Assembly (NCBI GenBank): GCA_903918375.1
Contig: CAIXED010000071.1
Location: 6,875-70,874, forward strand
Direction: 5' to 3'
Length of the DNA stretch: 64,000 nucleotides
Source: an uncultured Pseudomonadota bacterium
Lineage (GTDB): Bacteria > Pseudomonadota > Gammaproteobacteria > Methylococcales > Methylomonadaceae
Shown here: piece after piece, positions 6,307 to 58,625 of the stretch
How the letters are laid out: each line of letters begins with the position of its first letter
How positions within the stretch are numbered: position 1 is the stretch's first letter
Notes under the pieces: generated by a model
Told to the model about the DNA's origin: nothing
What the model saw: the letters and a program-made list of their open reading frames with translations, nothing else
The model's database searches: none
Made by a program: the position numbers and the translations under genes

Positions 6307-6972
6307 TCACTTAGGAAGGAATATTCCCTTAATGCAGTCAGCGTTTATTATTGAAAGTTGAATATGATTATGGGTGTTAAATCCCGCGCCAGGATATAGC
6401 GGTTTGCCTTCCCAAAAAACAGCTCTGACAGAATCGAATTCGATACCGTCATCTTTAGCGGCTTGAATTGCATAACGAATAACAGCACAATCAAGATATC
6501 GTTTTTTTAAATCAAAGTCGTTGTCATTAAATGCTGAATTTGTTGGTAGTACGTGGGACTCTTCACTTAATGTCTGTACCATCTCGTCATAGGCTTGTTT
6601 GGTGAAATCTAGCCATCTTTTATCGAGAAGATCTAAGCAACGACCTAAATCAATTACCGCACCTAAAACAAATGGCGTTGTAATTTTTGAATTAGGGCGT
6701 TTACTGTCTTGAATCGCATATTGTTTAGCACGCTCTAAGCTGTGTTCCCAAAAATAAACGCCGTCACCAAGCCAATCGTAGTCATTGTTGCTATGACGTA
6801 GGGTTTCGTTACCATTTAGAATTTTTTTGCCAATCGCTTCATCTAAACCGTGAAAGCCGAGAACATAAGAAGATCGTGAAGAGTACAACTTATTTTCCTT
6901 GGCGATGCTCAATGTCTTTTTGTATGGTTTCTGCAGAGAAAAACTTCTCGACATAGTGACCGTTGGTATCAA
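6307..6972 (-). CDS. Hypothetical protein with a PARP-like (H-Y-[E/Q]) ADP-ribosyltransferase-fold signature; start uncertain (TTG 6972, ATG 6954 or TTG 6888)
   Basis: It carries VLGFHG (H41), LGDGVYFWE (Y73, compare PARP GxGxYF) and C-terminal HNHIQLSII (Q205 where PARPs have E). It may be related to the DUF3990-type ART clan, but this was not verified. Confidence 0.45.
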   Translation of the reverse strand: MIPTVTMSRSFSLQKPYKKTLSIAKENKLYSSRSSYVLGFHGLDEAIGKKILNGNETLRHSNNDYDWLGDGVYFWEHSLERAKQYAIQDSKRPNSKITTPFVLGAVIDLGRCLDLLDKRWLDFTKQAYDEMVQTLSEESHVLPTNSAFNDNDFDLKKRYLDCAVIRYAIQAAKDDGIEFDSVRAVFWEGKPLYPGAGFNTHNHIQLSIINADCIKGIFLPK

Positions 6973-27741: not shown

Positions 27742-27800
27742 TGCTCGGCGCGGCAGAACGGGAAAACAATCACCTACTGCGTAACATCAGTTAAACAAAA

Positions 27801-29006
27801 ATGAAGCTGAAAAAACTGAGTATTGGAATAAGTCTAGCCATCGCTTTGGCGCAACCTTGTATGGCTGCACCGAAAGCCAAACCCGCGCCTTCTGCACCGG
27901 CAGTTGCCGCCAAGCAAGTGGTTAAAATTGCTTATTTCACCCAACAACAAAACCCGCCAGCCGCTTTATCAAATCTTGATCCGTTCATTGTTGATAAAGG
28001 CGTGATTGGCGCTGAATTAGCGATTAGCGATAACAACACCACCGGCCAATTCACTGGTCAGCAATATATCCTGCAAAAAATTGTCGTACCAGTCGATGGC
28101 GATGTGGTTCAGGCATTTAATCAGCAAATAGCCGCTGATGTCGGTTTGGTGGTGCTGAATCTCAATTCAGAGCAAATGTTGAAAGTCGCTGATTTAGCCA
28201 GCGCGCAGCAAAAATTGTTGTTCGATGCAGCCACCAGCGATGATGAAAATCGCAACGGCCAATGTCGTCATGGCGTACTACATATCTTGCCTAGCCGAGC
28301 GATGCGAGCCGATGCCTTAGCGCAATATATGCTGAAAAAACGCTGGCAAAAATGGTTTTTGGTGGTCGGTCAAACTCAAGAAGATCAATTGTTTGCTGCT
28401 GCAATTAAACGTGCGGCTAAACGCTTTAATCTAAAAATTGTTGCCGAGAAAAATTGGACCAACGATTTTGATGCTCGCCGCACCGCGCAAGCCGATGTAC
28501 CGGTGTTTACCCAAGGTGAAGATTATGATGTATTGGTGGTGGCGGATGAACAAGGCTTGTTCGGCGAATATTTCGATTACCGAACTTGGAGTCCGCGTCC
28601 AGTAATTGGTACCCAAGGCTTAATTGCCACGGCATGGCATCCAAGTCATGAGCAATGGGGCGCAGTGCAGTTACAAAATCGATTTAAAGACCAAGCCGGT
28701 CGTTGGATGCAAGAAGTCGATTACGGGGCTTATTTAGCGGTACGAGCGATTGGTGAAGCCAGTGTTCGCAGTAAATCCAATCAAGTCCCCGCGATTCGGG
28801 ATTATCTGTTTTCCAGTCATTTTGCCTTGCAAGGCTATAAAGGGATGCCGCTATCGTTCCGAGCTTGGGATGGTCAGCTACGGCAACCGGTTTTATTGGC
28901 CGCGCCACGTTCTTTAGTCGCGGTTGCACCGATTGAAGGTTTCTTACATCCAAAATCGGAATTAGATACTTTGGGTTACGATCAACCAGAAACCAGCTGC
29001 AAATAA
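27801..29006 (+). CDS. Periplasmic substrate-binding protein (Leu/Ile/Val-binding-like; possibly the PQQ-alcohol-dehydrogenase-system type)
   Basis: It has a signal peptide (MKLKKLSIGISLAIALAQPCMAAP), is ~400 aa and has a type I periplasmic binding layout. The subfamily is guessed from memory. Confidence 0.5.
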   Translation: MKLKKLSIGISLAIALAQPCMAAPKAKPAPSAPAVAAKQVVKIAYFTQQQNPPAALSNLDPFIVDKGVIGAELAISDNNTTGQFTGQQYILQKIVVPVDGDVVQAFNQQIAADVGLVVLNLNSEQMLKVADLASAQQKLLFDAATSDDENRNGQCRHGVLHILPSRAMRADALAQYMLKKRWQKWFLVVGQTQEDQLFAAAIKRAAKRFNLKIVAEKNWTNDFDARRTAQADVPVFTQGEDYDVLVVADEQGLFGEYFDYRTWSPRPVIGTQGLIATAWHPSHEQWGAVQLQNRFKDQAGRWMQEVDYGAYLAVRAIGEASVRSKSNQVPAIRDYLFSSHFALQGYKGMPLSFRAWDGQLRQPVLLAAPRSLVAVAPIEGFLHPKSELDTLGYDQPETSCK

Positions 29007-29011
29007 AGCCT

Positions 29012-30070
29012 TTAAAACACGCTTGGTAATCCTGGAATCCCTAGGGTTTGTATATGGTTAGCATTGCTGCCTTCTTGATAGGCCAGCAATTTGCCGTCAT
29101 GTTGCCAAAGCCTAAATGCCAAGGCTTGTGACAAAACCCGAATCGGATAATCACGCGGTAGTTCTTGTAGATAAGGTTGCATGGTCACAAAATCGGTGGC
29201 TCCGTATTGTTTCATGATGAAAGCCAAGCCACCGTTACGCGGGCCAATGTTGTAAGCCAGTAAACCCAGATACAAGTCGTTGTGCATTTCGCTGAGATAA
29301 AACTTTAATGTCGCTGCGGCAATAAAAGCATTATGACGGGTATCGGTTAGCGATAATTTACTGACAGCTAAACGCAGTCTGGCTTGTTCCATAATCGATT
29401 TTGGGACAGCGGTAATTTGAAATAAACCGTGGCCACCATCATGGCTGTCGCGCGGTAAAAAAGATGATTCGGTGGCGGCTAGGCCGCACAATAACTCTGG
29501 ATCGAGCTGATAAGCTTTCGCAGCTTCATTAATAATGGCGTAGTAGGGATTAGCTCTTAGAATAATGGTTTGCAATTGTTCGGCATCGTGGCGTCGATAG
29601 GCTGCATAAACTTGGTGTGCTAGCGTTTCGCTCCGTACTTGCTGTTTGCCGCCGACTAAACTGCGTAACTGTTTAAAAGTCGCTAAATAGTCGGTTTGAC
29701 TGGCCAATCTTGCTGAGCCTGCCGCCAATCCGATCGCGAGTAAGCTAGGTAAAATCCAAGCGAATTCAATTAAACGTTTTCGTATTTGACTCCATAGCAA
29801 CAAACCCAATGCAGCAACCACGACTAAACCGACAATCCCAGCAGCGAAAGGTAATAAATTGGTATAAAAATCCGAGCCGGAAAATTGTTGAGCAAAGTAA
29901 CCCAAGGCCAGCAAAGTGCCAATAGCTGCGGTGACAGTCAGACTCAAAAACTCTAAAACCGTAAACCACAGCCGAGTTTGATTGAGTTTGTTTTTACGTT
30001 TGCGAACTTTGGGTTTTGATTGACGACGAGGACGGGGCTTTTTGGCAATTGTTTGCCGAGTTCGGCTCAT
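29012..30070 (-). CDS. Membrane-anchored lytic transglycosylase (SLT domain) protein
   Basis: It has a basic N-terminus, TM segments, and an SLT-like AATESSF ... GLFQIT ... AYNIGP. Confidence 0.7.
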   Translation of the reverse strand: MSRTRQTIAKKPRPRRQSKPKVRKRKNKLNQTRLWFTVLEFLSLTVTAAIGTLLALGYFAQQFSGSDFYTNLLPFAAGIVGLVVVAALGLLLWSQIRKRLIEFAWILPSLLAIGLAAGSARLASQTDYLATFKQLRSLVGGKQQVRSETLAHQVYAAYRRHDAEQLQTIILRANPYYAIINEAAKAYQLDPELLCGLAATESSFLPRDSHDGGHGLFQITAVPKSIMEQARLRLAVSKLSLTDTRHNAFIAAATLKFYLSEMHNDLYLGLLAYNIGPRNGGLAFIMKQYGATDFVTMQPYLQELPRDYPIRVLSQALAFRLWQHDGKLLAYQEGSNANHIQTLGIPGLPSVF

Positions 30071-30254
30071 AAATCACGAAAGGTTAGGCTGAAATTAGGC
30101 CTAGTTTATCCTGATTTTGCGCTATTTAACTTAAAGCCGAGTTGACGATAGCCGAGGCGATGGTATATTCCTATTCCTGTTGAAAGATGTTGTTAAGCAT
30201 CATTCATGTCGCCAAGCTGAAAATTATAATAATAACGGGGTGTGAAAGGCCTAA

Positions 30255-31778
30255 TTGGCCTTGAGTTACTCTAAAATGCCCTTGGGCATGTTTACAACAT
30301 CTAATAGATCAAGGATTATTCGTATGCAACCGCAAGATTATTTGCCGTTTTTTCAAGACCTGTTCATTCAAACTTATCAATCTACCCTCGAAAATCCAGT
30401 GTATGCCGCGTGTTTATCGGTGGCGGTATGGTTGCTGACAGCGATTTTTTACAGCATCAGAATTGGATTTTTAAATGGTCGAAACAAACGAGCAATCAAA
30501 ACCATTGCCGATATTAAGCAAGCTTTGACTGCAGCGGAGCAACAAGTCCAGCAAGCTCAAGACGAAATGCAAGCTCAACAGCAACAACTTGAGCAAAGCA
30601 CACAAAGCAATACCGAATTGAAAGAGCAATTAAAAGATATCGCCAGCCAATTAAGCTCCGCGATTCAAACTTTAGCCGCTAATCCCGATTTAGGTCAGCA
30701 AGGTTTGTCAGTTGGCCAAGGTTTATCAGCAGAAGCCTTGTTCCAGCGTTTTAATGCCGCTAATCAACAAATTTGTGAGCACTTGTTAGCGCAGCGCCAA
30801 AAACAAGCTGATTTAGAAGCCGATTTGCAAGCAGAGGCTGGTAAATTGGCTGACAAAGATCAACAAATTCAAACTATGCAGATCCGTCTTGATGCTCAAA
30901 GCCAGCAATTAGGTAATTTGACTTTAAGCATTGAAGATTTCAAACAGCAATTGAACCAACAACAGCAAGATGCTCAATTAAATGTTGCTCAGATCCAAAC
31001 TCAACATCAAGCCGAATTGTCAGCTTTGAGACAACAGTTACAACAAGCAAAACTGCAAGTGCCAGCGCCAGTTGTCGTCGAGCCGCCTAAGCCTGTCGTT
31101 CCGCCAGTGCCGGTTGCGCCTGTTACAGTTCAAGCCGTAACGCCAGCACCACTGATAGAAGTGAAACCATTGATTGCCGAGATTAAACCTGCGCCTGTCG
31201 TTTCAGAACCGGTTGTTACTGTCGCTCCACCTGCGGCTCCGGTAGAAAAAACAGTGCCTGTGCAAGCTAAGGCTCAGCCAGAAGCCAGCAAGCCTAAAGC
31301 TAAAGGCATGTTTGCCAGCGCCTTAAGCAGCTTTTCTAAGTTGGACAAAAAATTAGCAGGAGAGCCAACTCCGGTAGCTGAAGTTGAAACCGTTGCTACA
31401 AAACCAGTCAGCATTCCTGAGCCACAGCCGGTAGTTGAGAAGCCGATTGAGCCAGTGGTTGAGGCTGTTAAACCTGAACCGGTCGTTGTTGCCACCGAAA
31501 CCAAACCAAAAGCCAAGCCTGCAGTAGCAGCGAAAAAAGCCGACGGCAAAAGCAAAGGCTTTTTTGCCAAGGCGATGAACACCTTTGCTTCGATGGATCA
31601 AAAATTGGGTGGTACACCGAATGAAGGGGTTCAACCATTGGAAGAAGAAACTCCAGTGCTTGAAGCACAAGTTGTTGTTGAGGAAGCGCAAGCGCCAGTT
31701 GAGCCTGTCATTGCCGCAGCTCCGCAGCCTCAATCGGCAGCTAAAAAAGGTCTGTTCGGTAAGTTCAAGCGTAAATAA
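30255..31778 (+). CDS. Membrane-anchored coiled-coil / Pro-Val-Ala-rich protein of unknown function; start uncertain (alternative ATG at 30324, MQPQD...)
   Basis: It has one N-terminal TM, a Q-rich coiled coil and a PV-rich region, with three copies of a K-G-[FLM]-F-[AG]-K/S amphipathic motif. Confidence 0.5.
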   Translation: MALSYSKMPLGMFTTSNRSRIIRMQPQDYLPFFQDLFIQTYQSTLENPVYAACLSVAVWLLTAIFYSIRIGFLNGRNKRAIKTIADIKQALTAAEQQVQQAQDEMQAQQQQLEQSTQSNTELKEQLKDIASQLSSAIQTLAANPDLGQQGLSVGQGLSAEALFQRFNAANQQICEHLLAQRQKQADLEADLQAEAGKLADKDQQIQTMQIRLDAQSQQLGNLTLSIEDFKQQLNQQQQDAQLNVAQIQTQHQAELSALRQQLQQAKLQVPAPVVVEPPKPVVPPVPVAPVTVQAVTPAPLIEVKPLIAEIKPAPVVSEPVVTVAPPAAPVEKTVPVQAKAQPEASKPKAKGMFASALSSFSKLDKKLAGEPTPVAEVETVATKPVSIPEPQPVVEKPIEPVVEAVKPEPVVVATETKPKAKPAVAAKKADGKSKGFFAKAMNTFASMDQKLGGTPNEGVQPLEEETPVLEAQVVVEEAQAPVEPVIAAAPQPQSAAKKGLFGKFKRK

Positions 31779-31796
31779 AGCCCAATCAAGCCTTAT

Positions 31797-31873
31797 GGAT
31801 TTTCATTAAGTGCTGCTAAATGGTTGTAGTATTGGGAAATTCAAGACTTGGTTGGGGACATGATTGTCTTGTT
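31797..31873. repeat. Direct repeat copy A (upstream of rpn)
   Basis: GGATTTTCATTAAGTGCTGCTAAATGGTTG ... TTGGTTGGGGACATGATTGTCTTGTT. It matches copy B at 32995-33050 apart from a 21-nt insertion and a few substitutions. Confidence 0.85.
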
Positions 31874-31935
31874 ATGGCCACTTGCTCTGAGATGGTATCA
31901 AAAGGCCTTGAATAATTGCAGGCTATAATCAAAAC

Positions 31936-32922
31936 ATGAGTCAAGATCACGACAGCAGTTACAAATTTCTTTTTTCGAATCCAGAATTAGTTCGGGATTT
32001 GATCATGGGTTTTATTCCTGATGAATGGTTGCATAGCCTTGACTACACCACATTAGAGAAGGTGCCAGGCCATTACGTCAGCGAAGATTTTCAGCAACGG
32101 GAAGATGATATTGTCTGGCGAGTGAAAATCGGTGGTGATTGGTTGTATCTGTATTTGTTGCTGGAGTTTCAAAGCGGCGTCGACAAGTACATGGCGCTGC
32201 GGATGATGGTTTACATTGGTTTGCTGTATCAAGACCTGATTAAGCGCGGCGATGTGTTACCCGACGGGCGTTTGCCACCGATTTTGCCGATCGTTTTATA
32301 CAACGGCCAACCACGCTGGACTGCAGTTACCGACGTTTCGGAGTTAATTCCCGCCGTTCCCGGACTGGTTGAACAATTCAAACCCAAGCTGAAATATCTA
32401 TTGATTGATGAAAATGCTTACAGCGATGCAGAGTTGGCATCAGTCAATAATTTGGTGGCCGCCGTGTTTAGGCTGGAACACCCTGCTAATCCGCAAACCA
32501 TCAGTGAGTTATTAAGCGCATTGAATGACTGGCTGAGCGACAGGCCTGACTTACGACGCATGTTTGCCTTGTGGATACGGGCGACATTGATGAGAAAACC
32601 GGAGTACGGTATCGTGCTTCCCCAAGTAGATGATTTGCAGGAGATAAACGTTATGCTGGCACAACGACTAGAAGATTGGGCGCGTGGTTATCGAGCGGAA
32701 GGTCGGCAAGAAGGTCGACAAGAAGGCCGACAAGAAGGACTTCAAAAAGGTCGACAAGAAGGTGAGTTACTGGCGTTACAACGTTTGCTGTCACGGCGTT
32801 TTGGTGTAATTCCAGTGGATGTGACGGAAAGGATTTCAAAAGCGGCTTTGCCAGACATTGAGCTCTGGTTAGATCGGGTGATTGAGGCAAAACAATTGGC
32901 GGATGTATTTAACGATTCTTAA
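31936..32922 (+). CDS. Rpn family recombination-promoting nuclease / putative transposase (YhgA-like PD-(D/E)XK) with a DUF4351-like C-terminus
   Basis: The N-terminus is HDSSYKFLFSNPELVRDLI...DIVWRV...LYLLLEFQS. The C-terminus has EGRQEGRQEGRQEGLQKGRQEGE repeats followed by LLSRRFG.... Confidence 0.85.
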   Translation: MSQDHDSSYKFLFSNPELVRDLIMGFIPDEWLHSLDYTTLEKVPGHYVSEDFQQREDDIVWRVKIGGDWLYLYLLLEFQSGVDKYMALRMMVYIGLLYQDLIKRGDVLPDGRLPPILPIVLYNGQPRWTAVTDVSELIPAVPGLVEQFKPKLKYLLIDENAYSDAELASVNNLVAAVFRLEHPANPQTISELLSALNDWLSDRPDLRRMFALWIRATLMRKPEYGIVLPQVDDLQEINVMLAQRLEDWARGYRAEGRQEGRQEGRQEGLQKGRQEGELLALQRLLSRRFGVIPVDVTERISKAALPDIELWLDRVIEAKQLADVFNDS

Positions 32923-32994
32923 GTTTTACTAAGATTTTATTTTTGATCATCTCAGTTAAACGATAAAGGGCCAACCGGTCAGCAGTTGTCTTCT

Positions 32995-33050
32995 GGGTTT
33001 TCATTAAGTGCTAGCAAATGGTTGGTTGGGGGTGGCATGATTGTCTTGTT
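32995..33050. repeat. Direct repeat copy B (downstream of rpn)
   Basis: GGGTTTTCATTAAGTGCTAGCAAATGGTTGGTTGGGGGTGGCATGATTGTCTTGTT; see copy A. Confidence 0.85.
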
Positions 33051-33059
33051 GCGACCCAT

Positions 33060-33071
33060 TCCTGACGTCCA
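33060..33071. repeat. 12-bp direct repeat TCCTGACGTCCA, left copy, at the edge of the GC-rich cassette
   Basis: It is an exact match to 35570-35581 and contains the palindrome GACGTC. Confidence 0.9.
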
Positions 33072-33111
33072 AACCAAGACTGTTCCAATGACGGCCACCA
33101 AATTCGAGCCG

Positions 33112-35514
33112 TCATTCGCTATCGGCGACGTATTCGCACTTTGCAAAGGCTGTTCCGAGAACCGCCTGAATTGCGGGAATCAATTGATCTTTCTCAACTC
33201 GAGTAGCCCATTCGGACTGCTCAGGGATGTTACGTGCCTGGACCGTTCGAAGCGCAATTAAGACGCGTTGGAGCAATGGCAAAGACCTCGTTTCGATTGC
33301 CGCATTCACCCAATTATCGGCATGTGTCCACGAACGCGACAGCAAGTCGGCCATGGTCAGAGTGATAGGCTCTATGGGGCCTTGATCCTGACAGAGGACG
33401 CGGCCGAATTCGCCAATGTCGTGCTCTAAGTGGCCCAGTCCCTCCTCATTAGCCCGCATCAACGGGAACGGACACTGGCCGATCTGAAAAAGTAACCAAG
33501 CATCCATTCGTTGGCTGTCGTCGTCAACGACGGCGGTCGGCAGGCGCGCCAACTGTCCAAGGATCATCCATGGCGTTGTATTTGCATACATCCGCGATCG
33601 CTCAGCACCAAGGTCGACTGCCTCACCACGGACCTCGCCATAGCGGTCTGAGAGCCATGCCTTGCCGTCTTCGATCTTGAGGTAAATGACCTGACCGTCC
33701 CGTGTCGCCAAGCAGATCAGTGCCCGTTCCACGAGCTCTTCTTCAGGCTTGATCGAAAGCAGACCATCAATGATTCCGGAGTTGAATCCACCGGTCATGT
33801 CCGCGATGTTCCGGATCGCCTGGGCGCCCACGATGTCGCCGAGGTAAACTCCGGAAAGCTTCTGTCCCAGCCAAACGCCAGCGTCGTGTGGGTCAGCATT
33901 CGCCTGGCGTTCGAGTTCGGCGCCGGCGACGTCGGCTAGTTCAACGAGAAACGCGGCGGGAACGGTTGGCACAACGATGTCCTCGCCACAGGCGTGACGA
34001 TACACCCGCACCCAGCCTCCGCTTTTCAAATCGATCAGTGCATCTCGGGCTTCAGGCGAAAGAGCATCCTGCCGAATGACGAAGCCATTGGATGCAGCTA
34101 AGGCAAGTTCGGCTCGGCCAGCGTTCGTATCGGCTAGAGCGTCGCGAGCTAGCAGGCGGTAACCGCGTAAGAGAATTGCCTGCCCGGCATGAGCCTCGCG
34201 CGCAAAATCGACCAGATCGATGCCAAGCGCTGACGGCAGCAGCACTTCGCAGGACGGATCATCAAAGCGGGGATCGCGTGCGATCTTATCGTAGATGGTG
34301 CGCAGCACCCAGGGTGCGCGATAGTCTTCTGCATATTCTGATCCTTTGACAAAGGCGATTTTGTTATGCCGCAGGACTTGTTGCGCAGCCTGGAACTCCT
34401 CCAATCCAAGCGGGCCCAGTTCAATACCAGAGGCGTGCGTACCCAATCCCGTCAAAGTGCGCCCGTTGGGCGCCTTTATGAGACCTTCAGGTCGATCGGT
34501 AGTGATGATGACACGCAGATTCGTACCAGGGCCTATGCCTGCTAACTCCTCCAGATCCGCGGCCATAGAGGTGCCCGGATCGACGCTATCAATCGCTACG
34601 ACCAGAACCGGACCGGTCGAACCAGTCGACATCCGTCGGAGCCATTGGCGTGCATTGTTGGCCGAAAGGTTCCACTCGAGTTCGGCGGTGAATAGATTGG
34701 CCAACGACTGGAAAAGGCCTGGGCCTAAGCCACGCAGCATCAGCACGGCCAGTTCGTCGCTCTTGCTTGTCCTCAGAGCCAGTTCACGCAGGAGACTGGA
34801 CTTTCCCGTTGCTGGCGCACCTTCGACGATGGTGAAGGTTGGTCCATCCAGCAGAGTTTTGATCGCCCTGATCGTATCCAGCCGAGGGAATAACAGGTTG
34901 CTGGCGAACGGGCGGTTCGCCGCGCCGGGTTCGTTGGTCATCTCTTGCAGCAGCTTAGTTGTACTTGTGCGCACGATAGGCACCCAGACACCCGTTTCGC
35001 GCCCCATCAATGCCTCGATTGCCCACCGCATGTCGGCCGCGGCAATCTTGGCCGCGTTGGTGAGCAGACGCGCCACGGCGCCAGAGGCGTCGTCATCACC
35101 AGTCCATGCTTGGCCGGTGTTGGAGTCGTAAACTCGGGTTTCGCTGCCGTTTGTAACGACGACAAGAGGCGGCCGCGGTGTGAGTTGGTTGGCATAGCTC
35201 TGGGCCTGCTCGTAATCGTCGCGGGTGAGTGTCAGATCTTCGCGCTTTAATTCCAGCACTGCCAACGGGCGCTCATTGTGGAAAATCAGGATGTCGGCGC
35301 GACCGCTCTTTGTCCACTGGGCCGCACTGTCGAACTCGTGTGTAGCATGGCCGAGCCGCACAGTAAAGCGGCGCTGCTCAACTAATTGGTCACGCGGTAT
35401 GTTGGGAAACGCAATATTGAGAGCCGTAGCCAGTCGGCTTTCAAGTTCGGCTTCAGGGCGAACATCCAAGGCTGATTGTGGGGCTTCGTTATTTTTCTGT
35501 TGAGATTGGTCCAT
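33112..35514 (-). CDS. PD-(D/E)XK (HsdR_N/Mrr-like) nuclease domain fused to a STAND/NACHT-like P-loop NTPase and an unassigned ~450-aa C-terminal region
   Basis: It has GRADILIF...PLAVLELKRE...VVVTNGSETRVYD (D74, E88, K90), Walker A GAPATGKS (nt 34798-34821), Walker B VLVVAIDSVD, then RVIITTDRP. Codon composition is clearly GC-richer than the neighbours, and stop-free antisense ORFs are present. Confidence 0.6.
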   Translation of the reverse strand: MDQSQQKNNEAPQSALDVRPEAELESRLATALNIAFPNIPRDQLVEQRRFTVRLGHATHEFDSAAQWTKSGRADILIFHNERPLAVLELKREDLTLTRDDYEQAQSYANQLTPRPPLVVVTNGSETRVYDSNTGQAWTGDDDASGAVARLLTNAAKIAAADMRWAIEALMGRETGVWVPIVRTSTTKLLQEMTNEPGAANRPFASNLLFPRLDTIRAIKTLLDGPTFTIVEGAPATGKSSLLRELALRTSKSDELAVLMLRGLGPGLFQSLANLFTAELEWNLSANNARQWLRRMSTGSTGPVLVVAIDSVDPGTSMAADLEELAGIGPGTNLRVIITTDRPEGLIKAPNGRTLTGLGTHASGIELGPLGLEEFQAAQQVLRHNKIAFVKGSEYAEDYRAPWVLRTIYDKIARDPRFDDPSCEVLLPSALGIDLVDFAREAHAGQAILLRGYRLLARDALADTNAGRAELALAASNGFVIRQDALSPEARDALIDLKSGGWVRVYRHACGEDIVVPTVPAAFLVELADVAGAELERQANADPHDAGVWLGQKLSGVYLGDIVGAQAIRNIADMTGGFNSGIIDGLLSIKPEEELVERALICLATRDGQVIYLKIEDGKAWLSDRYGEVRGEAVDLGAERSRMYANTTPWMILGQLARLPTAVVDDDSQRMDAWLLFQIGQCPFPLMRANEEGLGHLEHDIGEFGRVLCQDQGPIEPITLTMADLLSRSWTHADNWVNAAIETRSLPLLQRVLIALRTVQARNIPEQSEWATRVEKDQLIPAIQAVLGTAFAKCEYVADSE

Positions 35515-35569
35515 GTATTTAGTGCTAAAAGCTATTTATTTGTTCGATCAATATGATGAGCGGGAATGC

Positions 35570-35581
35570 TCCTGACGTCCA
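35570..35581. repeat. 12-bp direct repeat TCCTGACGTCCA, right copy
   Basis: It is an exact match to 33060-33071 and lies 55 nt upstream of the start codon of the 800-aa gene. Confidence 0.9.
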
Positions 35582-35771
35582 GCGTCTCACTTTCAGGTGG
35601 AGCTGACCTTCGAGCGACCGCTTCAAACACTGTATGGATGACCGAAGATGGCCGTTAACAAGCATTCCGGTTAACCAACTTTTCACCAAACGGTGCAAAC
35701 TAAAAACAGTCGGCGTTGTGATTTCCACCCTTAGAATGCAAATAGCCGGTGTTTTAAACTATGTGCCTCTT

Positions 35772-36617
35772 TCACTTAGTATTTCGTGCCGCTAAGCGTG
35801 GAATATCGCTACTGATAAATAAAGCCGGATCGACGGCTTCCTTGTTTAAATAAACAATCCAATGTAAATGTGGGCCAGTCACTCGACCAGTCGCCCCGAC
35901 ACTGCCCAAGCGTTGACCTTGATAGATTTGCTGGCCATTGTGGACATCAATTTGGGTCATGTGTAGATAAACACTAATCAAACCCTGACCGTGATCTAAA
36001 AACACGGTATTGCCATTAAAGAAAAAACTCCCTGTGCCAATCACCTTGCCAGAAGCAGGGGCCATAATCGGGGTGCCAGCAACAGCGGCAATGTCTAAAC
36101 CGTTATGCGGTTGGCGTGGGACGTTATTAAAAAAGCGTTTCAAGCCAAATAAGCTGCTTAAACGACCATCAACCGGTGCCGTGAAATGAGTATCAGCAGG
36201 GCGTTGGCTCCAAGTGCTTTTAATCTGCTCCATACTGATTTTTTCCGACTCAATCCGTCTCAAGTCTTCCGGTGTCATTTCATCAACCATGCGTTTGTTT
36301 TCGATAGTTAAACGCTGTTCTGGATAATGTTTATCCAACACCATAAACGAGATTTCGCCATTGCCAGCACTGGATTCGACCATCAGCTTTTGTAAGCCCG
36401 GTGTCGCTGCTAATGGAATCCCAACCAACGCTAGCCATTGACCATTACGCTCGGTGACTAGAACGCGATTGCGATTGAAATAGGCGTTGGGGGCAGGGGA
36501 GCGACTGTCACCAAGGTTAATTTCGGCAACCCCACCTGGCACGGTTAAATTTTGTGGATAAGGATCGGCTTGGCTGAGCAGAGGAAATAAGCTCAGTAGT
36601 AGCAGTTTTTTAATCAT
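35772..36617 (-). CDS. M23 family metallopeptidase (LytM-type)
   Basis: It has a signal peptide, HNGLDIAA, and GATGRVTGPHLHW (the HxH motif). Confidence 0.85.
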   Translation of the reverse strand: MIKKLLLLSLFPLLSQADPYPQNLTVPGGVAEINLGDSRSPAPNAYFNRNRVLVTERNGQWLALVGIPLAATPGLQKLMVESSAGNGEISFMVLDKHYPEQRLTIENKRMVDEMTPEDLRRIESEKISMEQIKSTWSQRPADTHFTAPVDGRLSSLFGLKRFFNNVPRQPHNGLDIAAVAGTPIMAPASGKVIGTGSFFFNGNTVFLDHGQGLISVYLHMTQIDVHNGQQIYQGQRLGSVGATGRVTGPHLHWIVYLNKEAVDPALFISSDIPRLAARNTK

Positions 36618-37947
36618 GAATAATCTCTTTAACTTCGCTCAATACTTGGCCTTGAGCAAAACGAGTCAGCATCAAGTCGTTAATTGATAATTGTTGGCTG
36701 GATTTAATAATCTGTTGATTGTCTTGACGTTGGCTGATGGCGTAGCCGCGTTCCAAAGTTGCTAATGGACTGACTGCGTGTAAAGTCTGGCTGATAGCGG
36801 CTTGTCGAGTTTTTAAACGACTTATTTTCAGCTCAATTGAGCGTTCCAGCCGCTGCTGTAAATAGCTTAATTGCTGTTGATGGCTGTTGATTTGTTGGCT
36901 GGGTTGCCATTGTTTGAGTTGGTGATGACCAATCGCCAATTGTTGCTGACAGTCGCGCAATTTGTGTTGTATCGCTTGATTGATGCGTTGTTCAAATTCA
37001 TCTAAACGCTGGGCATTGCGCTGTAGTTTTTGGCCGGGATGTTGCTGTTGTAAGGCTTTATCTAGCCAAGCTAACTGTTGTTGGTGTTGTAATAAGCGGC
37101 GTTGGATTAATTGGCTTAACTGTTTTTCAAGCGCATCAAACGCATTCAGCCATGCTTCTTGGTGGGGAACCGCATGTTCGGCAGCGGCAGATGGCGTGGC
37201 CGCACGTAAATCAGCCACAAAGTCGGCGATGGTGACATCGACTTCGTGGCCGACCGCAGAAATCACCGGAATCTCGCTGGCGGCAATTGCTCTGGCGACA
37301 ATTTCTTCATTAAACGCCCATAAATCCTCTAAGGAGCCGCCACCCCGCGCCAAAATGATCACATCGACTTGCTTGTGTTGATTGGCAGTCGCCAACGCTT
37401 GAGTAATTTCAAATTTGGCGGTTTCTCCTTGAACAGCCACCGGATAAATCAACACCGGAATCGCCGGAAAACGACGTTTGAGCACCGTCAAAATATCATG
37501 TATCGCCGCGCCAGTCGCTGATGTAATCACGCCAATTTGTTTGGGAATTAAGGGTAGGGCTTGTTTGCGTTGTTGATCGAACAAGCCTTCTTGCAGTAAT
37601 TTGGCTTTGAGTTTTTCAAACGCTAAACGTAAAGCGCCATCACCGGCTTCTTCGAGATGATCCACGACTAATTGATAATCACCTCGCGGTTCGTACAAAC
37701 TGACTTGTGCGGTGGCAATGACTTGATTGCCATTGCTGGGTTTAAAGCGTAAACGTTGCTGTTGGCCTTTAAACATCGCACAGCGAATTTGTGCTTGCGA
37801 GTCTTTTAAAGTGAAGTAAATATGGCCGGAAGCGGGGATACTGAGATTGGAGATTTCGCCAGCCACCTGCACATTTAAAAAGTGCGTGGCCAATAAGCGT
37901 TTGGCTTCGCGATTAAGCTGGGAAACGCTGTAAACAGTGTCTTGCAT
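36610..37947 (-). CDS. xseA: Exodeoxyribonuclease VII large subunit
   Basis: It has an N-terminal OB-fold (VSQLNREAKRLLATHF..V.V.GEISN), the RGGGSLEDLWAFNEE motif and a C-terminal coiled coil. Confidence 0.9.
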   Translation of the reverse strand: MQDTVYSVSQLNREAKRLLATHFLNVQVAGEISNLSIPASGHIYFTLKDSQAQIRCAMFKGQQQRLRFKPSNGNQVIATAQVSLYEPRGDYQLVVDHLEEAGDGALRLAFEKLKAKLLQEGLFDQQRKQALPLIPKQIGVITSATGAAIHDILTVLKRRFPAIPVLIYPVAVQGETAKFEITQALATANQHKQVDVIILARGGGSLEDLWAFNEEIVARAIAASEIPVISAVGHEVDVTIADFVADLRAATPSAAAEHAVPHQEAWLNAFDALEKQLSQLIQRRLLQHQQQLAWLDKALQQQHPGQKLQRNAQRLDEFEQRINQAIQHKLRDCQQQLAIGHHQLKQWQPSQQINSHQQQLSYLQQRLERSIELKISRLKTRQAAISQTLHAVSPLATLERGYAISQRQDNQQIIKSSQQLSINDLMLTRFAQGQVLSEVKEIIHD

Positions 37948-53344: not shown

Positions 53345-55750
53345 ATGGACAAGCTTAGCCTTAGCGAACGCGATATTTGCACAAAATTCATCACCCCAGC
53401 CATTCAAAAAGCCGGCTGGCAACAACATCAGTTCCGTGAAGAAGTAAATCTCACTGACGGTCGTGTCATGGTGCGAGGTAAACTCGCAGCACGCATCAAA
53501 AACCCAGAGGCAAAAGGCGGTCCCAAACGTGCCGATTTCGTACTCTATGCAAGGCCCAACCACCCTATCGCAGTAGTTGAAGCCAAACAGGCCAAGTTTT
53601 CTATTGGTCATGGTATGCAACAGGCCTTGGCCTATGCCGAAATGCTAGATACACCGTTTGCCATCAGCAGCAACGGCGATGGCTTTCTTCTGCACGACCG
53701 AACCGGTCTCACTCAACCAGTAGAACGTGAGCTACCACTCAACGAATTCCCTGCTTTGGATGAGCTTTGGCCGCTGTACCAGCAATGGAAAGGGCTGGCC
53801 GCACCCGAAGCTGTCAAACTCATTGAACAGCCTTTCCATACTGATGGCAGCGGCAAAGAACCCCGCTATTACCAACGCGTGGCAATCAATCGCGCTATAG
53901 AAGCAGTCGCAAAGGGCCAACAACGTGTACTGCTGGTTATGGCCACTGGCACCGGTAAAACCTACACCGCTTTTCAGATTATTTGGCGACTGTGGAAAGC
54001 CAAATCCAAGAAGCGCATCCTGTTTCTGGCTGATCGCAATATTCTGGTTGACCAAACTATGCAGCAAGACTTCGCACCGTTTGGCGAAGTAATGCACAAG
54101 GTCAGCAATCGCGAAGTTAAGAAAAACTACGAAATTTACCTAGCGCTCTACCAAGCAGTCACAGGCAAAGAAGAATGGAAGCAAATTTATCGCCAATTTC
54201 CAGCTGACTTCTTTGATCTAGTCGTGATTGACGAATGCCACCGAGGCAGCGCCGCGGAAGACTCCGCTTGGCGTGAAGTGCTTGGCTATTTCACCAGCGC
54301 AACCCATTTAGGACTTACCGCTACCCCTAAGGAAACAAAAGAAATTAGCAACAGTAACTACTTTGGCGAACCGATTTACACCTATTCGCTCAAGCAGGGC
54401 ATCGAAGATGGTTTTCTTGCGCCTTACAAAGTGATCCGCATAGCCACCGATGTAGATGCAGTAGGCTACACCCCAGAAAAAGGTAAGGTCGATAAACTCG
54501 GCCAAGCGGTTGAGCAACGTCACTACAACACCAAAGATTTCGACCGTAATCTGGTACTGGAAAAACGCACCAAACTGGTTGCCAGCAAAGTATGGGAATA
54601 CCTTAAGGCCACTGATCCGATGGCGAAAACCATCGTCTTTTGCGACGATCAAGATCACGCCGAACGTATGCGCCAAGAACTGGTGAAGCTGATTCCAGCT
54701 GCAGCCAATAACCGCCGCTACGTGATGCGCATCACTGGCGACGACAACGAAGGCAAAGCACAACTGTCGTACTTCATTGATAACGATGAACCTTATCCGG
54801 TGATTGCGACTACCTCCAAACTTCTGACCACTGGCGTCGATGCCAAAACCTGCAAGCTCATCGTACTGGATCAGAACATCAACTCAATGACCGAGTTCAA
54901 ACAAATCATTGGCCGAGGCACACGCCTGCGTGAGGATTATCAGAAACTGTACTTCACCATCATGGACTTTAAAGGCGCTACACGACTGTTCGCCGATGCC
55001 GATTTCGATGGCGAGCCGGTCGTAATATACGAGCCAAAACCCGATGAACCGGTCGTTCCCCCAGACACCAATCCAGAGGATATCCTTGAACCCACGCCAC
55101 CACCTTACGGCTCTAGCACCACGGGTAGCAATGACACCGACGCTGAAGGTCGCACTAAATACGTCATCGACGACGTCAACGTGCAAGTGGCTGTCGAGCG
55201 CTCTCAATACCTTGATGCCGACGGTAAACTGATGACCGAAGACTACCGAGTCTTGCTCAAAGACGACATCAAGAAAACTTTACAGACCGAATTCGGCAGC
55301 CTCACCGACTTTCTGCGTCGCTGGAACAATGCCGAACGCAAACAAGCGGTACTAGAGCAATTGGCTGAACATGGCGTAGCTCTGGACATCCTACAGCAGG
55401 CAGTAAGCAACGGCAGCGAGTTAGATGCTTTTGATCTGGTTGCTCACGTTGCCTTCGATCAAAAACCACTGACCCGCCGCGAACGCGCCAATCAAGTGAA
55501 AAAGCGCGATGTGTTCGGTAAATACGGTGAACAAGCCCGTGCTGTGCTGGAGGCTCTACTCGAGAAATTTGCCGACCACGGTGTGCAAGACATTGAAGAC
55601 GCTAGAGTGCTGGAACTGCCGCCTTTTGATCAATTCGGCAGCAAAACCCAAATCCGTCGCGGCATTTTTGGCAGTGTCGAGCAATATAGCCAAGCCATAC
55701 AAGAACTCGAACAAGCGCTTTATGACCCATCTTTACAAAAACAAGCCTAA
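53345..55750 (+). CDS. hsdR: Type I restriction enzyme R subunit (EcoEI/COG4096-like)
   Basis: It has an N-terminal nuclease core (ADFVLY...IAVVEAKQ...AISSNGDG), helicase motifs (ATGTGKT, DECHRG, LGLTATP, QIIGRGTR) and a C-terminal helical domain. Confidence 0.9.
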   Translation: MDKLSLSERDICTKFITPAIQKAGWQQHQFREEVNLTDGRVMVRGKLAARIKNPEAKGGPKRADFVLYARPNHPIAVVEAKQAKFSIGHGMQQALAYAEMLDTPFAISSNGDGFLLHDRTGLTQPVERELPLNEFPALDELWPLYQQWKGLAAPEAVKLIEQPFHTDGSGKEPRYYQRVAINRAIEAVAKGQQRVLLVMATGTGKTYTAFQIIWRLWKAKSKKRILFLADRNILVDQTMQQDFAPFGEVMHKVSNREVKKNYEIYLALYQAVTGKEEWKQIYRQFPADFFDLVVIDECHRGSAAEDSAWREVLGYFTSATHLGLTATPKETKEISNSNYFGEPIYTYSLKQGIEDGFLAPYKVIRIATDVDAVGYTPEKGKVDKLGQAVEQRHYNTKDFDRNLVLEKRTKLVASKVWEYLKATDPMAKTIVFCDDQDHAERMRQELVKLIPAAANNRRYVMRITGDDNEGKAQLSYFIDNDEPYPVIATTSKLLTTGVDAKTCKLIVLDQNINSMTEFKQIIGRGTRLREDYQKLYFTIMDFKGATRLFADADFDGEPVVIYEPKPDEPVVPPDTNPEDILEPTPPPYGSSTTGSNDTDAEGRTKYVIDDVNVQVAVERSQYLDADGKLMTEDYRVLLKDDIKKTLQTEFGSLTDFLRRWNNAERKQAVLEQLAEHGVALDILQQAVSNGSELDAFDLVAHVAFDQKPLTRRERANQVKKRDVFGKYGEQARAVLEALLEKFADHGVQDIEDARVLELPPFDQFGSKTQIRRGIFGSVEQYSQAIQELEQALYDPSLQKQA

Positions 55751-55786
55751 ACCATGCGCCTGTTTACAAAATAAGAGCAATACACA

Positions 55787-57564
55787 ATGAATCTCAGCAG
55801 TACCATCAAATCCATCCAAGACATCATGCGTAAAGACGACGGCGTTGACGGCGATGCCCAGCGTCTCGGCCAGCTCACTTGGATGTTATTCCTAAAAGTG
55901 TTCGACCAGCGCGAAGAAGAATGGGAAGACGACAATTCCAGCTATCAATCGCCTTTGCCAAATTATTTACGTTGGCGTAACTGGGCTGCCTATATCGCTG
56001 ACGCGGATGGCAAGAAAAAACCGCAAATTGCCGCCAGCGAAGTGATTGGTTTTGTTAACAACGACTTATTCCCCGCACTCAAAGAACTCAATGCCAACCG
56101 AAGCCCACAACACAAAGTAATCCGTGGCGTTTTTGAAGATGCCAACAACTACATGAAGTCGGGTACTCAATTACTAGCGGTCATCGAAAAGCTAGAAGAC
56201 GCCATCAACTTTCACGACTTTAAAACCCGCGCCAGCCTAGGCGACGTTTACGAACAAATGCTCAACGACCTACGTGGAGCAGGCAATGCAGGCGAGTTCT
56301 ACACCCCACGCGCCATTACTGCCTTCATGGCAGACCGCGTTAATCCACGCTTAGACAAACGCGAAACGGTGATGGACCCTGCCTGCGGCACTGGCGGCTT
56401 CTTAACTGCCGCTATCGACCACTTTCGCAACCAGCTCACCACCAAATCCAACGCTGACGACAAACGAGCCATTGAAGAGCTAATCCACGGCATCGAAAAA
56501 AAACAGCTACCACATCTGCTATGCACCACCAACATGCTGCTACATGGCATCGACGTACCCAGCCAGATCGAACACAAAAACACGCTGGGCATTGGTTGGA
56601 ACGAATGGAGTTCTAACAAAAAGATCGATTGCATCATCACCAACCCGCCATTTGGCGGCTACGAAGACGATGGCGTGGGTAGCGATTACCCAGCCGACCT
56701 ACGCACCCGCGAAACCGCCGACATGTTCATGGCGCTGATCATCAAAAATTGCTAAAGGAAAATGGTCGTGCTGCGGTGGTATTGCCGGATGGCTTTTTGT
56801 TTGGCGACGGCATCAAAGGCACCTTGAAAAAACTACTGTTGCGCGATTGCAAGCTACATACCATTATCCGCCTACCCAAAGGCGTATTTGCACCGTACAC
56901 CACCATCAAAACCAACCTGTTGTTTTTCACAAAAGGCAATCTGGCAGACGACGGCACCGAGCATTTTCATACCGATAGCATTTGGTTCTACGAGCATCCT
57001 TATCCAAGCGGTTATAAGAGCTATTCCAAAACCAAACCCATCCGCCTCGAAGAATTCAAGCCCGAGCAGGAATGGTGGGGCACCGAGATCAATGATTTCG
57101 CCGACCGCGTGGAAAACCAATTTGCTTGGAAAGTCGATTTCAAAACCAAGCGCGAACAGGCCGAAGCCGCCGCCGCACCACACTGGCAACGCGCCGAAGC
57201 CCTTAACAACCAAGCCGCTAAACTAGAGGGCGAAGCAAGCGAGTTGCGTAAAAGTCTAGTCGGCACCACCGACACCGCTTACCGCGAAAAAATCGATGCC
57301 CAGATTACCGATCTCCGCGCCCAAGCCGAACCGTTGCGCTTGCAAGCCCGCGATGCCCAAGCGGCTGGCGACCGAATTTATTGGCCAATCTTCAATCTCG
57401 ACATCAAAAATCCCAATACCCCAGAAGAAGAAAGCCACGATCCAGATTTATTACTAGAGAAATATAAAAAACTAATCGGCGAGATAGAGGAAACCGAAAA
57501 CCAGTTGAAAAACGAACTGGCTGCCGCCTTAGCGCATCATTTCACAACCGAGAATCTCAAATGA
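55787..57564 (+). pseudogene. hsdM: Type I R-M DNA methyltransferase subunit HsdM, interrupted by a 1-nt frameshift in an A5 run (56744-56748)
   Basis: The two ORFs (55787-56755 and 56749-57564) are the N- and C-terminal parts of one HsdM (HsdM_N, GEFYTPR, ITNPPFGG, then GRAAVVLPDGFLFG...TNLLFFTKG). Adding one A gives the continuous reading LIIKKLLKENGRAAVV. Confidence 0.75.
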
Positions 57565-58625
57565 GCAGCAGCCAGCCAACGCCAGAAAATCCGCAATTAC
57601 TCGGCGACATCCGCCTGTTAATCGACGCCAGCCGCAGCACACTCACCGCTACCGTTAACAGTGCCTTAACTCAACTATACTGGCACATCGGCCAACGCAT
57701 TCGTAGCGAAGTGCTTAACAACCAACGCGCTGAGTATGGCGAGCAAATTGTCCTGATGCTGGCTAACCAATTACAAGCCGACTATGGACGCGGCTTTTCC
57801 GCTAAAAGCTTGCGCCACATGTTGCGTTTTGCTGAATGCTATCCCGACCATCAAATTGTCTCGACACTGTCGAGACAATTGTCTTGGAGTCATTTTTTAG
57901 AACTCATCTATCTCAAAGATTCGTTGCAACGCGACTTCTACACCCAAATGAGCGCTCAGGAAGGCTGGAGTGTGCGGCGTTTACGTGAACGTAAAGATAC
58001 CCTGTTATTCGAGCGCACTGCCTTGTCCCAGCAACCAGAGGCATTACTGGCCGACGAACTAACGGCATTGCGAGAAACCGGCGAGCTAATCCCTGCGCTG
58101 GTACTCAAAGACCCTTACCTACTCGATTTTCTGCAACTCAACGACCGCTATCTGGAAAAAGACCTAGAAGACGCCATTCTGCGTGAACTCGAAAACTTCC
58201 TGCTAGAACTTGGCGCTGGCTTTAGCTTTGTCGCTCGCCAAAAGCGGTTGCAAATCGACAACGACGATTTCTACATAGACCTATTGTTTTACAACCGCCG
58301 CCTAAAACGCTTGGTAGCGATTGATTTAAAACTGGGCGACTTCAAAGCTGCCGACAAAGGCCAGATGGAGCTGTATTTACGCTGGCTGGCTAAACATGAG
58401 CAAGAACCCGGCGAAGCCGCACCGCTGGGAATTATCTTGTGCAGTGGCAAAAAACAGGAACAAATCGAGTTACTAGAACTCGACGCCAGCGGCATCCACG
58501 TTGCTGAATATCTCACCGAGCTACCGCCCAAAGCCCTGCTGCAACAAAAACTCCACGAAGCCATTATCCAATCACGGCAACGGCTGGATAATCGTAGCGT
58601 TGACCAAAACGGCGAGGTAGCCTGA
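57561..58625 (+). CDS. YhcG/DUF1016-family PD-(D/E)XK nuclease-domain protein embedded in the R-M operon
   Basis: It has an N-terminal DUF1016-like helical region (LYWHIGQRI...YGEQIV..LA..L) and a C-terminal core (FYIDLLFYNRRLKRLVAIDLKLG). An ATGA overlap joins it to hsdM and a TGATG overlap joins it to hsdS. Confidence 0.8.
   Translation: MSSSQPTPENPQLLGDIRLLIDASRSTLTATVNSALTQLYWHIGQRIRSEVLNNQRAEYGEQIVLMLANQLQADYGRGFSAKSLRHMLRFAECYPDHQIVSTLSRQLSWSHFLELIYLKDSLQRDFYTQMSAQEGWSVRRLRERKDTLLFERTALSQQPEALLADELTALRETGELIPALVLKDPYLLDFLQLNDRYLEKDLEDAILRELENFLLELGAGFSFVARQKRLQIDNDDFYIDLLFYNRRLKRLVAIDLKLGDFKAADKGQMELYLRWLAKHEQEPGEAAPLGIILCSGKKQEQIELLELDASGIHVAEYLTELPPKALLQQKLHEAIIQSRQRLDNRSVDQNGEVA

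Follow-up and report, generated by a model that had tools for sequence, protein, structure and literature searches.

Among the known systems closest to the gene analysed here are bacterial antiviral STAND receptors. They comprise the Avs proteins (Gao et al. 2022, PMC10028730), including Avs3 and Avs4 with N-terminal nucleases of the Mrr/Cap4 type, and the NLR-related bNACHT proteins (Kibby et al. 2023, PMC10294775). We analysed a 64,000-nt stretch of DNA from an uncultured Methylomonadaceae bacterium (positions 6,875 to 70,874 of contig CAIXED010000071.1, assembly GCA_903918375.1), hereafter the window, in which an uninterrupted ATG-start open reading frame (ORF) of 800 codons plus stop occupies positions 33112-35514 of the minus strand. 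This target gene specifies, in this order, a nuclease, a STAND-like nucleoside triphosphatase (NTPase) and an acidic C-terminal module. ATP-driven switches of the STAND type also operate in innate-immune receptors of animals, plants and bacteria. The ORF and all motifs quoted in an initial annotation made from the sequence letters (D74...E88-x-K90, GAPATGKS, VLVVAIDSVD and RVIITTDRP) are as stated, as checked by translation. We regard the gene product as probably a horizontally acquired, stand-alone, Avs/NLR-type receptor directed against phages or mobile elements. We infer its immune function, the nature of its trigger, its oligomerisation and an abortive outcome. Its horizontal transfer, its usual residence among anti-phage genes and the lack of a match to any named family make the gene a good candidate for a new single-gene immune system.

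The N-terminal domain (residues 20-140; 35095-35457, minus strand, as are all features of the gene given below), delimited by Pfam and by alignment to the HsdR encoded elsewhere in the window (53345-55750), matched HSDR_N (PF04313) with E = 2.9e-10 and 40.8 bits, against a gathering cutoff of 25.1, and HSDR_N_2 (PF13588) with a score of 35.4, against a cutoff of 25. It is 28% identical to the window HsdR (E = 0.001) over the D...ExK...QxxxY...NG block, which bears out the D...ExK...NG layout that the annotation had recognised in both proteins. The catalytic core D74 ... E88-L-K90 (DILIFHNERPLAVLELK) maps to 35245-35295, as checked by translation, and the QxxxY motif (Q103, Y107), which aligns to QALAY of the window HsdR, to 35194-35208. 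QxxxY is a signature of RecB/HsdR nucleases and is needed for cleavage in the HsdR of EcoR124I. Family alignments were built with 46 members and, more widely, with 51 members reaching down to 26% identity. The residues D74, E88 and K90 are invariant in both sets, so that the nuclease catalytic residues are conserved throughout; in the wider one, Q103, Y107, R211, G237 and E373 are likewise invariant, and G232, K238 and D309 are conserved in at least 90% of the members. This residue conservation evidences that the nuclease and the nucleotide-binding site are under family-wide purifying selection. Indeed, the nuclease is the most conserved and slowest-evolving domain, with a mean pairwise identity of 42%. 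By its sequence, the N-terminal domain is a genuine HsdR-N type PD-(D/E)XK nuclease. Homology of this domain to HsdR also accounts for the RefSeq name of the target protein, that is, a restriction-enzyme domain protein. An NCBIfam search of the full protein returned noise-level matches only, TIGR00348 scoring 13 bits against a cutoff of 285. A superfamily 2 (SF2) helicase/translocase motor (ResIII, Helicase_C) is absent from both the protein and the DNA insertion that carries its gene, and hsdM and hsdS are not in this insertion either.

A helical linker (residues 141-205; 34900-35094), identified in the structural model and with a predicted local distance difference test (pLDDT) score <50 at residues 151-165, connects the nuclease to a P-loop nucleotide-binding domain (residues 206-368; 34411-34899) that is delineated by its DSSP strand order, a pLDDT of ~90 and AAA_22, and that has its invariant arginine upstream of the P-loop (LFPR211). 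Within this domain lie Walker A (GAPATGKS, residues 232-239; 34798-34821), Walker B (VLVVAIDSVD, residues 303-312; 34579-34608), whose D309 is invariant in close members, and a sensor-1-like strand (RVIITTDRP, residues 334-342; 34489-34515), in which T338 and D340 are at least 90% conserved and residues 333-338 form a strand in the model. Next comes a helical domain (residues 369-420; 34255-34410) that, according to model and alignment, begins with LGLEEF, including the invariant E373, followed by a putative winged-helix-like domain with a beta hairpin (residues 421-517; 33964-34254), proposed on the basis of secondary structure and of fold matches to STAND and ORC proteins. Residues ~350-800 had been described as some 450 aa devoid of recognisable features. 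This does not hold, as residues 350-517 make up the helical and winged-helix parts of a STAND/ORC-type module, and the stretch left unplaced comprises ~283 aa (residues 518-800).

The full-length AlphaFold2 model, generated with the 46-sequence alignment, has a mean pLDDT of 83.2 and a predicted TM-score (pTM) of 0.77. Foldseek comparison of this model with the PDB yielded 115 matches at E<=0.001, led by CED-4, Drosophila ORC/Cdc6, Apaf-1, Avs4, NLRC4, SAMD9, NOD2, a STAND protein with tetratricopeptide repeats (TPR) and an Avs5 filament. The top STAND matches (CED-4, Apaf-1, Avs4, NLRC4, NOD2, SAMD9 and Avs5) had E-values of 1e-6 to 1e-4 and a probability of 1.0, and the structure of Avs4 bound to portal (PDB 8dgf) aligned with the target model over 806-842 columns. 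By our own count, the best 50 of the 115 matches comprise ~38 STAND proteins and ~12 AAA+ proteins of the ORC/Cdc6, RFC and proteasome types. The model therefore supports a grouping of residues ~206-517 with the STAND ATPases and their ORC/Cdc6 sisters, and a STAND-like character at the level of the fold. Profile searches were less explicit. Weak Pfam matches among the 46 members were to AAA_22 in all 46, AAA_16 in 33, nSTAND5 in 31 (best E = 2.3e-4) and nSTAND3 in 17, and the scores of the window protein for AAA_16, nSTAND5 and nSTAND3 were below gathering; nor did this protein match Pfam NACHT at E<=1. The family consensus of Walker B, hhhhDGVE, presumably recalls the extended DGhDE motif of NACHT proteins, and we take the hhhTTDRP strand to be NACHT-like as well. 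Thus, of the proposed STAND/NACHT-like NTPase, the STAND-like part stands by fold search, with CED-4, Apaf-1, Avs4, NLRC4, NOD2 and Avs5 as matches, whereas NACHT is not supported by profile. The fold matches are mostly to STAND proteins, but as ORC/Cdc6 scores equally well, they do not separate a STAND from an ORC-like module. The succession of effector, NTPase and C-terminal module is likewise real as judged by fold search; a sensor role of the C-terminus stays putative.

This putative trigger sensor, the C-terminal module (residues 518-800; 33115-33963), consists of a helical, a beta-rich and a second helical part. When residues 517-800 were modelled alone, pLDDT was 82.1 and pTM 0.76, yet Foldseek searches with this model found nothing significant in the PDB (best E = 0.46) or among the viral predicted structures of BFVD. 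A PH/FERM-F3-like fold was considered on the basis of weak, low-probability matches and rejected. The module carries a net charge of -18 in the target and a median of -13 in the family (isoelectric point ~5), and no basic domain occurs in the target protein. Together with the winged-helix domain, the module, in particular its beta region, is the fastest-evolving part of the protein (25% mean pairwise identity). The strongly negative charge of the module favours a cationic trigger, be it a basic protein, a DNA-binding protein or another ligand, and disfavours direct sensing of DNA. It is conceivable, though doubtful, that the module represents a new pattern-recognition domain that would mimic DNA and thereby bait a conserved phage protein of basic or DNA-binding character, in a compact, hitherto unrecognised NLR-like branch. 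The module also contains a conserved motif, GQCPFPL.R....G..H.EHD.....G.VLC, at residues 679-710 (33385-33480). Within the close clade, its residues C681, H698 and C708 show little or no variation, and in the wide family they are just the majority residues. The C-terminal model has its lowest confidence at this motif, which may bind a metal or a ligand.

The neighbourhoods of the homologues place the family among defence genes. The E. coli homologue, WP_000839828, resides in an integrase-bearing island at tRNA-Arg, where it adjoins a cluster of TerB-N, BrxD-like ATPase and DEAD-helicase genes together with a T5orf172 gene. In P. aeruginosa, the island is bounded by integrases and contains a reverse transcriptase with a helix-turn-helix (HTH) protein, Gp49/HTH toxin-antitoxin genes, RadC, DndB with a methyltransferase, and YhcG. 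One of the nearest relatives adjoins Fic and HipA genes, and another an MmeI-type IIG restriction-modification gene and two integrases. On the octopine-type Ti plasmid pTi15955 (L097, 4329-16292), AbiEi/AbiEii, an ABC-three-component system, a TIR protein and a zeta toxin cluster around the homologue, and in a Lysobacteraceae metagenome-assembled genome a 1,725-aa Avs4 (L026:1841-7018; PADLOC E = 9.6e-110) lies ~3 kb upstream of it. Of the 267 ORFs that 31 independent loci have no farther than 5 kb from a homologue, about half (133) were pooled and put through the same pipeline as a control set of 133 ORFs, taken from the surroundings of the core M23 gene of other bacteria. At E<=1e-10, the homologue neighbours matched 235 PADLOC families and the control ORFs 3, a contrast that is inflated by redundant restriction-modification models in PADLOC but unambiguous in its direction. 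Enrichment near known defence genes, one of the checks suggested with the annotation, is thus evident. Among the neighbour matches are the full Avs4 mentioned above, Shango SngB/SngC, type I, II and III methyltransferases and an Argonaute-associated restriction endonuclease, all by PADLOC, along with the Pfam families AIPR, BrxC/D, DUF4917, integrases and TniQ, the latter encoded near two homologues. As further observations on these loci, the Lysobacteraceae contig has two STAND-type nuclease systems side by side, and the genes beside the E. coli homologue (L006-L010 and L048; L007: 2035-7859) form a three-gene cluster for a TerB-N/TerB-C protein, a BrxC/D-like ATPase and a DEAD helicase.

Full-length homologues with 50-88% identity were retrieved in a first search from Dickeya, Pseudomonas, Burkholderia, Ralstonia, Shewanella, Aeromonas, Vibrio, E. 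coli, Sphingomonas, Mesorhizobium and Acidobacteria. In an exhaustive HMMER search of 1.84 billion cluster representatives, residues 201-800 matched 374 clusters, and nearly all full-length matches were ~770-830 aa long, with the matched module starting near residue 190; this uniformity in length and module start across the clusters denotes a fixed architecture with no alternative N-terminal effectors. A pattern scan of ~186,000 species-representative genomes located 34 loci, patchily distributed among Alpha-, Beta- and Gammaproteobacteria and Acidobacteria. The gene is found in 236 of 5,426 complete E. coli genomes (4.3%), always on the chromosome and nearly always at least 99% identical. The family also occurs on conjugative Ti plasmids, the pTi15955 member being 29% identical, and in the pathogens E. 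coli, P. aeruginosa, B. pseudomallei and V. parahaemolyticus. There was no homologue in the phage genomes searched, and sequence searches of the PDB with the protein or the family profile returned nothing real. Several family copies in the species-representative genomes (L023, L029, L037, L038, L040 and L045) are truncated or frameshifted, as would fit an accessory gene that is costly and often decays.

The history of the gene in the window was read from the empty site of a close relative, the metagenomic contig L053, which aligns to 27784-31790 and 35751-36639 with 89-91% identity and has ~7 nt in place of an insertion of 3,960 bp (31791-35750). The site lies inside a terminator hairpin between two convergent core genes. 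The flanking genes of L053 are those of the window (M23 peptidase, 95% identical; SLT, 93%; periplasmic binding protein, 98%), and there the M23 gene directly abuts a gene for a coiled-coil protein. The insertion contains only the target gene and an Rpn gene; no integrase or transposase, no cognate methyltransferase and no terminal repeats accompanying the target gene were found within it. The cassette-like boundaries of the annotation are therefore confirmed inasmuch as a discrete insertion exists, but they enclose Rpn and target together rather than the target alone. The foreign composition that had been claimed is equally evident, as the GC content of the target gene is 0.55-0.65, compared with ~0.44 in the flanks (+13 points). 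Core-gene status is largely contradicted by the empty site and by the low prevalence in E. coli. Collectively, these data indicate that the target gene is accessory and was acquired horizontally, here in a small and recent insertion. A 100% identical protein is encoded on 13 contigs, all of them with the context of the window. The nearest homologue loci (L049-L051; 88% protein identity) stand in a different genomic context, and their DNA similarity to the window runs from 35667 to 33117 with 90.6% identity, that is, over the gene and 153 nt upstream, ending at the stop codon. The restriction of the similarity to this segment defines the unit that moves. The 153-nt upstream region (35515-35667, minus strand), which travels with the gene, is presumed to provide the promoter and the 5' untranslated region; sigma-70 and terminator scans of the target region found nothing, including any sigma-70 consensus in the 153 nt.

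The only gene inserted together with the target thus belongs to a published family of anti-phage toxins. Rpn proteins form an anti-phage toxin-antitoxin system with intragenic antitoxins (PMC10327210). The window member, a YhgA-like gene on the plus strand (31936-32922), matches Pfam Transposase_31 (E = 1.7e-28) and DUF4351 and converges on the target gene across a 189-nt spacer, in agreement with the convergent adjacency to an Rpn nuclease noted earlier. The empty and filled sites show that a two-gene defence islet consisting of Rpn and target can enter the terminator between core genes without a recombinase of its own. Two direct repeats of ~75-95 nt, 76-86% identical, flank the Rpn gene (31792-31886 and 32990-63), the left one starting exactly at the insertion boundary (31791); they suggest a separate duplication or recombination event that brought Rpn beside the target. 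Inside the Rpn gene, near its C-terminal region, five repeats of 12 nt follow one another in tandem (32686-32762) and encode (E)GRQ units.

Does the target act alone? No neighbour is conserved family-wide around the homologues, yet tightly coupled genes recur in some clades. A DUF5623 gene is located 13 nt upstream in seven loci of the closest clade (L011:8672-9988, L014-L017, L019 and L026); its products, of ~438 aa with DUF5623 at the C-terminus, are 75-95% identical across Pseudomonas, Burkholderia, Lysobacteraceae, Acidovorax and Natronospirillum, and we found no literature on this domain. A 305-aa ORF lies 1-7 nt downstream of the homologue in L014, L015 and L039. The pTi15955 homologue is flanked by a 212-aa ORF and a TIGR02391 protein, one at 9 nt and the other with a 4-nt overlap, and in E. 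coli, where the homologue is found in two island layouts, a 338-aa gene immediately precedes it in both; the 338-aa protein has no Pfam domain and is unrelated to DUF5623, whose gene is absent from the window. None of these partners accompanies the window copy or its 88%- and 73%-identical relatives, which reside in other contexts. Thus, the single-gene status proposed for the target stands for the window and the nearest relatives, but not for other clades. The core gene is autonomous in several contexts, and accessory modulation by partners in others is likely.

In the mechanism we propose, the protein would rest as a nucleotide-bound monomer whose STAND-like switch (residues ~206-517) keeps the nuclease (residues 20-140) inactive and apart from its partners. 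A trigger derived from the invader, most likely a basic or DNA-binding protein rather than DNA itself, would bind to the acidic C-terminal module (residues 518-800) and to the variable surface of the winged helix. Trigger and ATP would then promote oligomerisation, bringing HsdR-type nuclease domains together, and the active nuclease would cut DNA without sequence specificity, so that infection stops, probably at the cost of the cell.

Several results tell against an Avs/NLR-type receptor and have to be set against this proposal. In PADLOC v2, neither the window protein nor the 51 members matched any model beyond the similarity of the nuclease to restriction-modification models, and the Avs, bNACHT, NLR-like and other STAND defence models remained unmatched, apart from a match to Avs2 in a single one of the 51 members, with an E-value (0.002-0.007) at the level of noise. 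In this respect the annotation was right that no named defence family fits. NACHT and NB-ARC are not among the 25 listed of the 33 Pfam families matched by the 46 members. ORC/Cdc6 proteins gave Foldseek E-values equal to those of STAND proteins, which keeps a DNA-loaded AAA+ mechanism in play. The C-terminal module is compact and has no TPR, WD40 or leucine-rich repeats (LRR), unlike classic STAND sensors, and the fixed architecture of the family lacks the effector swapping typical of Avs/bNACHT. Partners are usual in the closest clade, so the lone window copy may lack something needed, and the inflation of the neighbourhood contrast belongs here too. Finally, we found no publication on the family in the literature. 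The supplements of DefensePredictor, in the parts available, predict other HsdR-N proteins (883 and 825 aa) as novel defence genes, and the family is not among the validated systems listed in those parts. The proteins of an END-nuclease preprint, also considered, are unrelated, as they combine a PLD nuclease with an inactive EndoIII domain.

These observations bear on four other explanations. Were the protein to recognise foreign DNA itself, as an ATP-dependent, restriction-like enzyme acting in a type IV-like manner or by ORC/Cdc6-like loading, it would need no protein trigger; the winged helix would bind DNA, ATP would control assembly and the HsdR-type nuclease would cut. We deem this unlikely. 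It would fit ORC/Cdc6 as a top fold match with the same E-values as STAND, AAA_22, of the ORC/TniB-type family, as the most consistent Pfam match, the restriction-type nuclease with QxxxY and its RefSeq name, and an insertion without a cognate methyltransferase, as expected for a modification-dependent enzyme. However, the 283 C-terminal residues are acidic family-wide and no basic domain is present, STAND proteins prevail over ORC and other AAA+ proteins by ~38 to 12 among the top 50 matches and with longer alignments, and the target has neither a helicase/translocase domain nor a recognisable reader of modified bases. AAA_22 also includes TniB-type ATPases, which, along with TniQ near two homologues, could speak for a housekeeping ATPase-nuclease of repair, replication or transposition, for instance one made of a TnsA-like nuclease and a TniB/TnsC-like ATPase; PD-(D/E)XK nucleases do occur in TnsA of Tn7. 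Such a gene should hardly be absent from a near-identical relative, present in so few E. coli genomes and foreign in composition, and the empty site and the prevalence of 4.3% all but exclude a role in housekeeping or transposition, leaving this reading a negligible chance. A TnsA-TnsC-like transposition reading was also rejected because no transposase or terminal repeats were found and the fold matches include neither TnsC nor MuB.

The gene might otherwise encode one subunit of a multi-gene system, with DUF5623 or with the 212-aa and TIGR02391 proteins as partners that would supply sensing or antitoxin control, in which case the window copy would be an orphan, inactive, deregulated or decaying. 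The DUF5623 gene of the seven closest-clade loci, the 305-aa ORF of L014, L015 and L039, the tight flanking genes on pTi15955, the upstream gene in E. coli and several pseudogene homologues are arguments in this direction; but each clade has partners unrelated to those of the others, with none shared by the whole family, the window gene, intact with all catalytic residues, is identical on 13 contigs, and the 88%- and 73%-identical relatives, which share only the gene and the 153 nt upstream, are partner-less too. We therefore consider such an arrangement improbable. A similarly low probability is given to a gene that serves its mobile element, as an addiction or exclusion module or as a nuclease in competition between elements (plasmids, rival islands), and that would be found in defence islands as hitch-hiking cargo. 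The family is without exception located on islands, integrative elements or conjugative plasmids, close to genes for integrases, TniQ, ParB-like proteins and toxin-antitoxin systems, and has never been found in phage genomes. Yet the window insertion has no element backbone, only Rpn and target, no antitoxin-like partner is conserved, and anti-plasmid activity would still be a defence function exerted by the same mechanism. We thus retain the stand-alone receptor against phages or mobile elements as the probable function of the target.

Two further features of the window were noted. The 12-mer TCCTGACGTCCA, whose core GACGTC is palindromic, has just two exact copies in the 64 kb, both on the plus strand and one on either side of the target gene. 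The downstream copy (33060-33071) is 41 nt past the stop codon and absent downstream of the gene in L049-L051, whereas the upstream copy (35570-35581), 56 nt before the start codon, is within the conserved upstream region and also present in these loci. The repeat was rejected as a cassette or att boundary, since the homology to L049-L051 runs 86 nt past the upstream copy and the downstream one is missing there; the repeat may represent an operator or else a microhomology scar. A type I restriction-modification locus spans 53345-60343. Its hsdR (53345-55750) is intact and encodes 801 aa with ResIII, Helicase_C and EcoEI_R_C, while hsdM is split into two overlapping ORFs (55787-56755 and 56749-57564, covering N6_Mtase profile positions 4-148 and 173-297), suggestive of a frameshift. 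Between hsdM and hsdS (58625-60343) lies a YhcG/DUF1016 PD-(D/E)XK gene (57561-58625).

Comparison with known systems delimits what would be new in this protein. The R subunit of type I systems (HsdR) has a homologous N-terminal domain with the D...ExK...QxxxY...NG arrangement, but it also has an SF2 motor and works with HsdM/HsdS, all lacking for the target, whose remainder is unrelated. The ORC/Cdc6 initiators share the core of P-loop, lid and winged helix, and the target has a conserved arginine before Walker A; in contrast to them, it is accessory, mobile and fused to a nuclease, carries the extra 283-aa acidic module and has no replication role or context. The bNACHT proteins have the same effector-NTPase-sensor layout, a similar Walker B (DG-h-(D/E)) and hhhTT-R-P strand, and relatives among the fold matches (NLRC4, NOD2), but Pfam NACHT is not among the listed matches of the 46 members and the NLR-like models of PADLOC are unmatched. 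Avs3 and Avs4 likewise combine an N-terminal nuclease of the PD-(D/E)XK class, a STAND NTPase and a C-terminal sensor in a single polypeptide encoded in defence islands. They differ in size (~1,500-1,700 aa compared with 800 aa), in having a TPR-like repeat sensor where the target has a compact acidic alpha/beta module with no structural match, and in that the target nuclease is of the HsdR-N type, its family shows no effector diversity and no Avs model of PADLOC matches it. The claim that the target is shorter than typical Avs proteins is accurate for Avs1-4 but not for Avs5 (AVAST type 5; PDB 9nc9), whose chains of ~768 residues, with a small C-terminal region, are close to the 800 aa of the target and match its fold. 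Avs5, however, carries a SIR2 effector instead of a nuclease, is the only one of the two known to form filaments and gave no profile match. Although small, the family has members on Ti plasmids and in bacteria of clinical and agricultural importance, and its natural E. coli homologue allows direct testing. If validated, the target would be a compact, 800-aa, nuclease-armed STAND receptor whose sensor has no known structural relative, and thus a new solution for trigger recognition to be set beside the TPR sensors found in Avs proteins and the LRR or WD40 sensors of eukaryotic NLRs.

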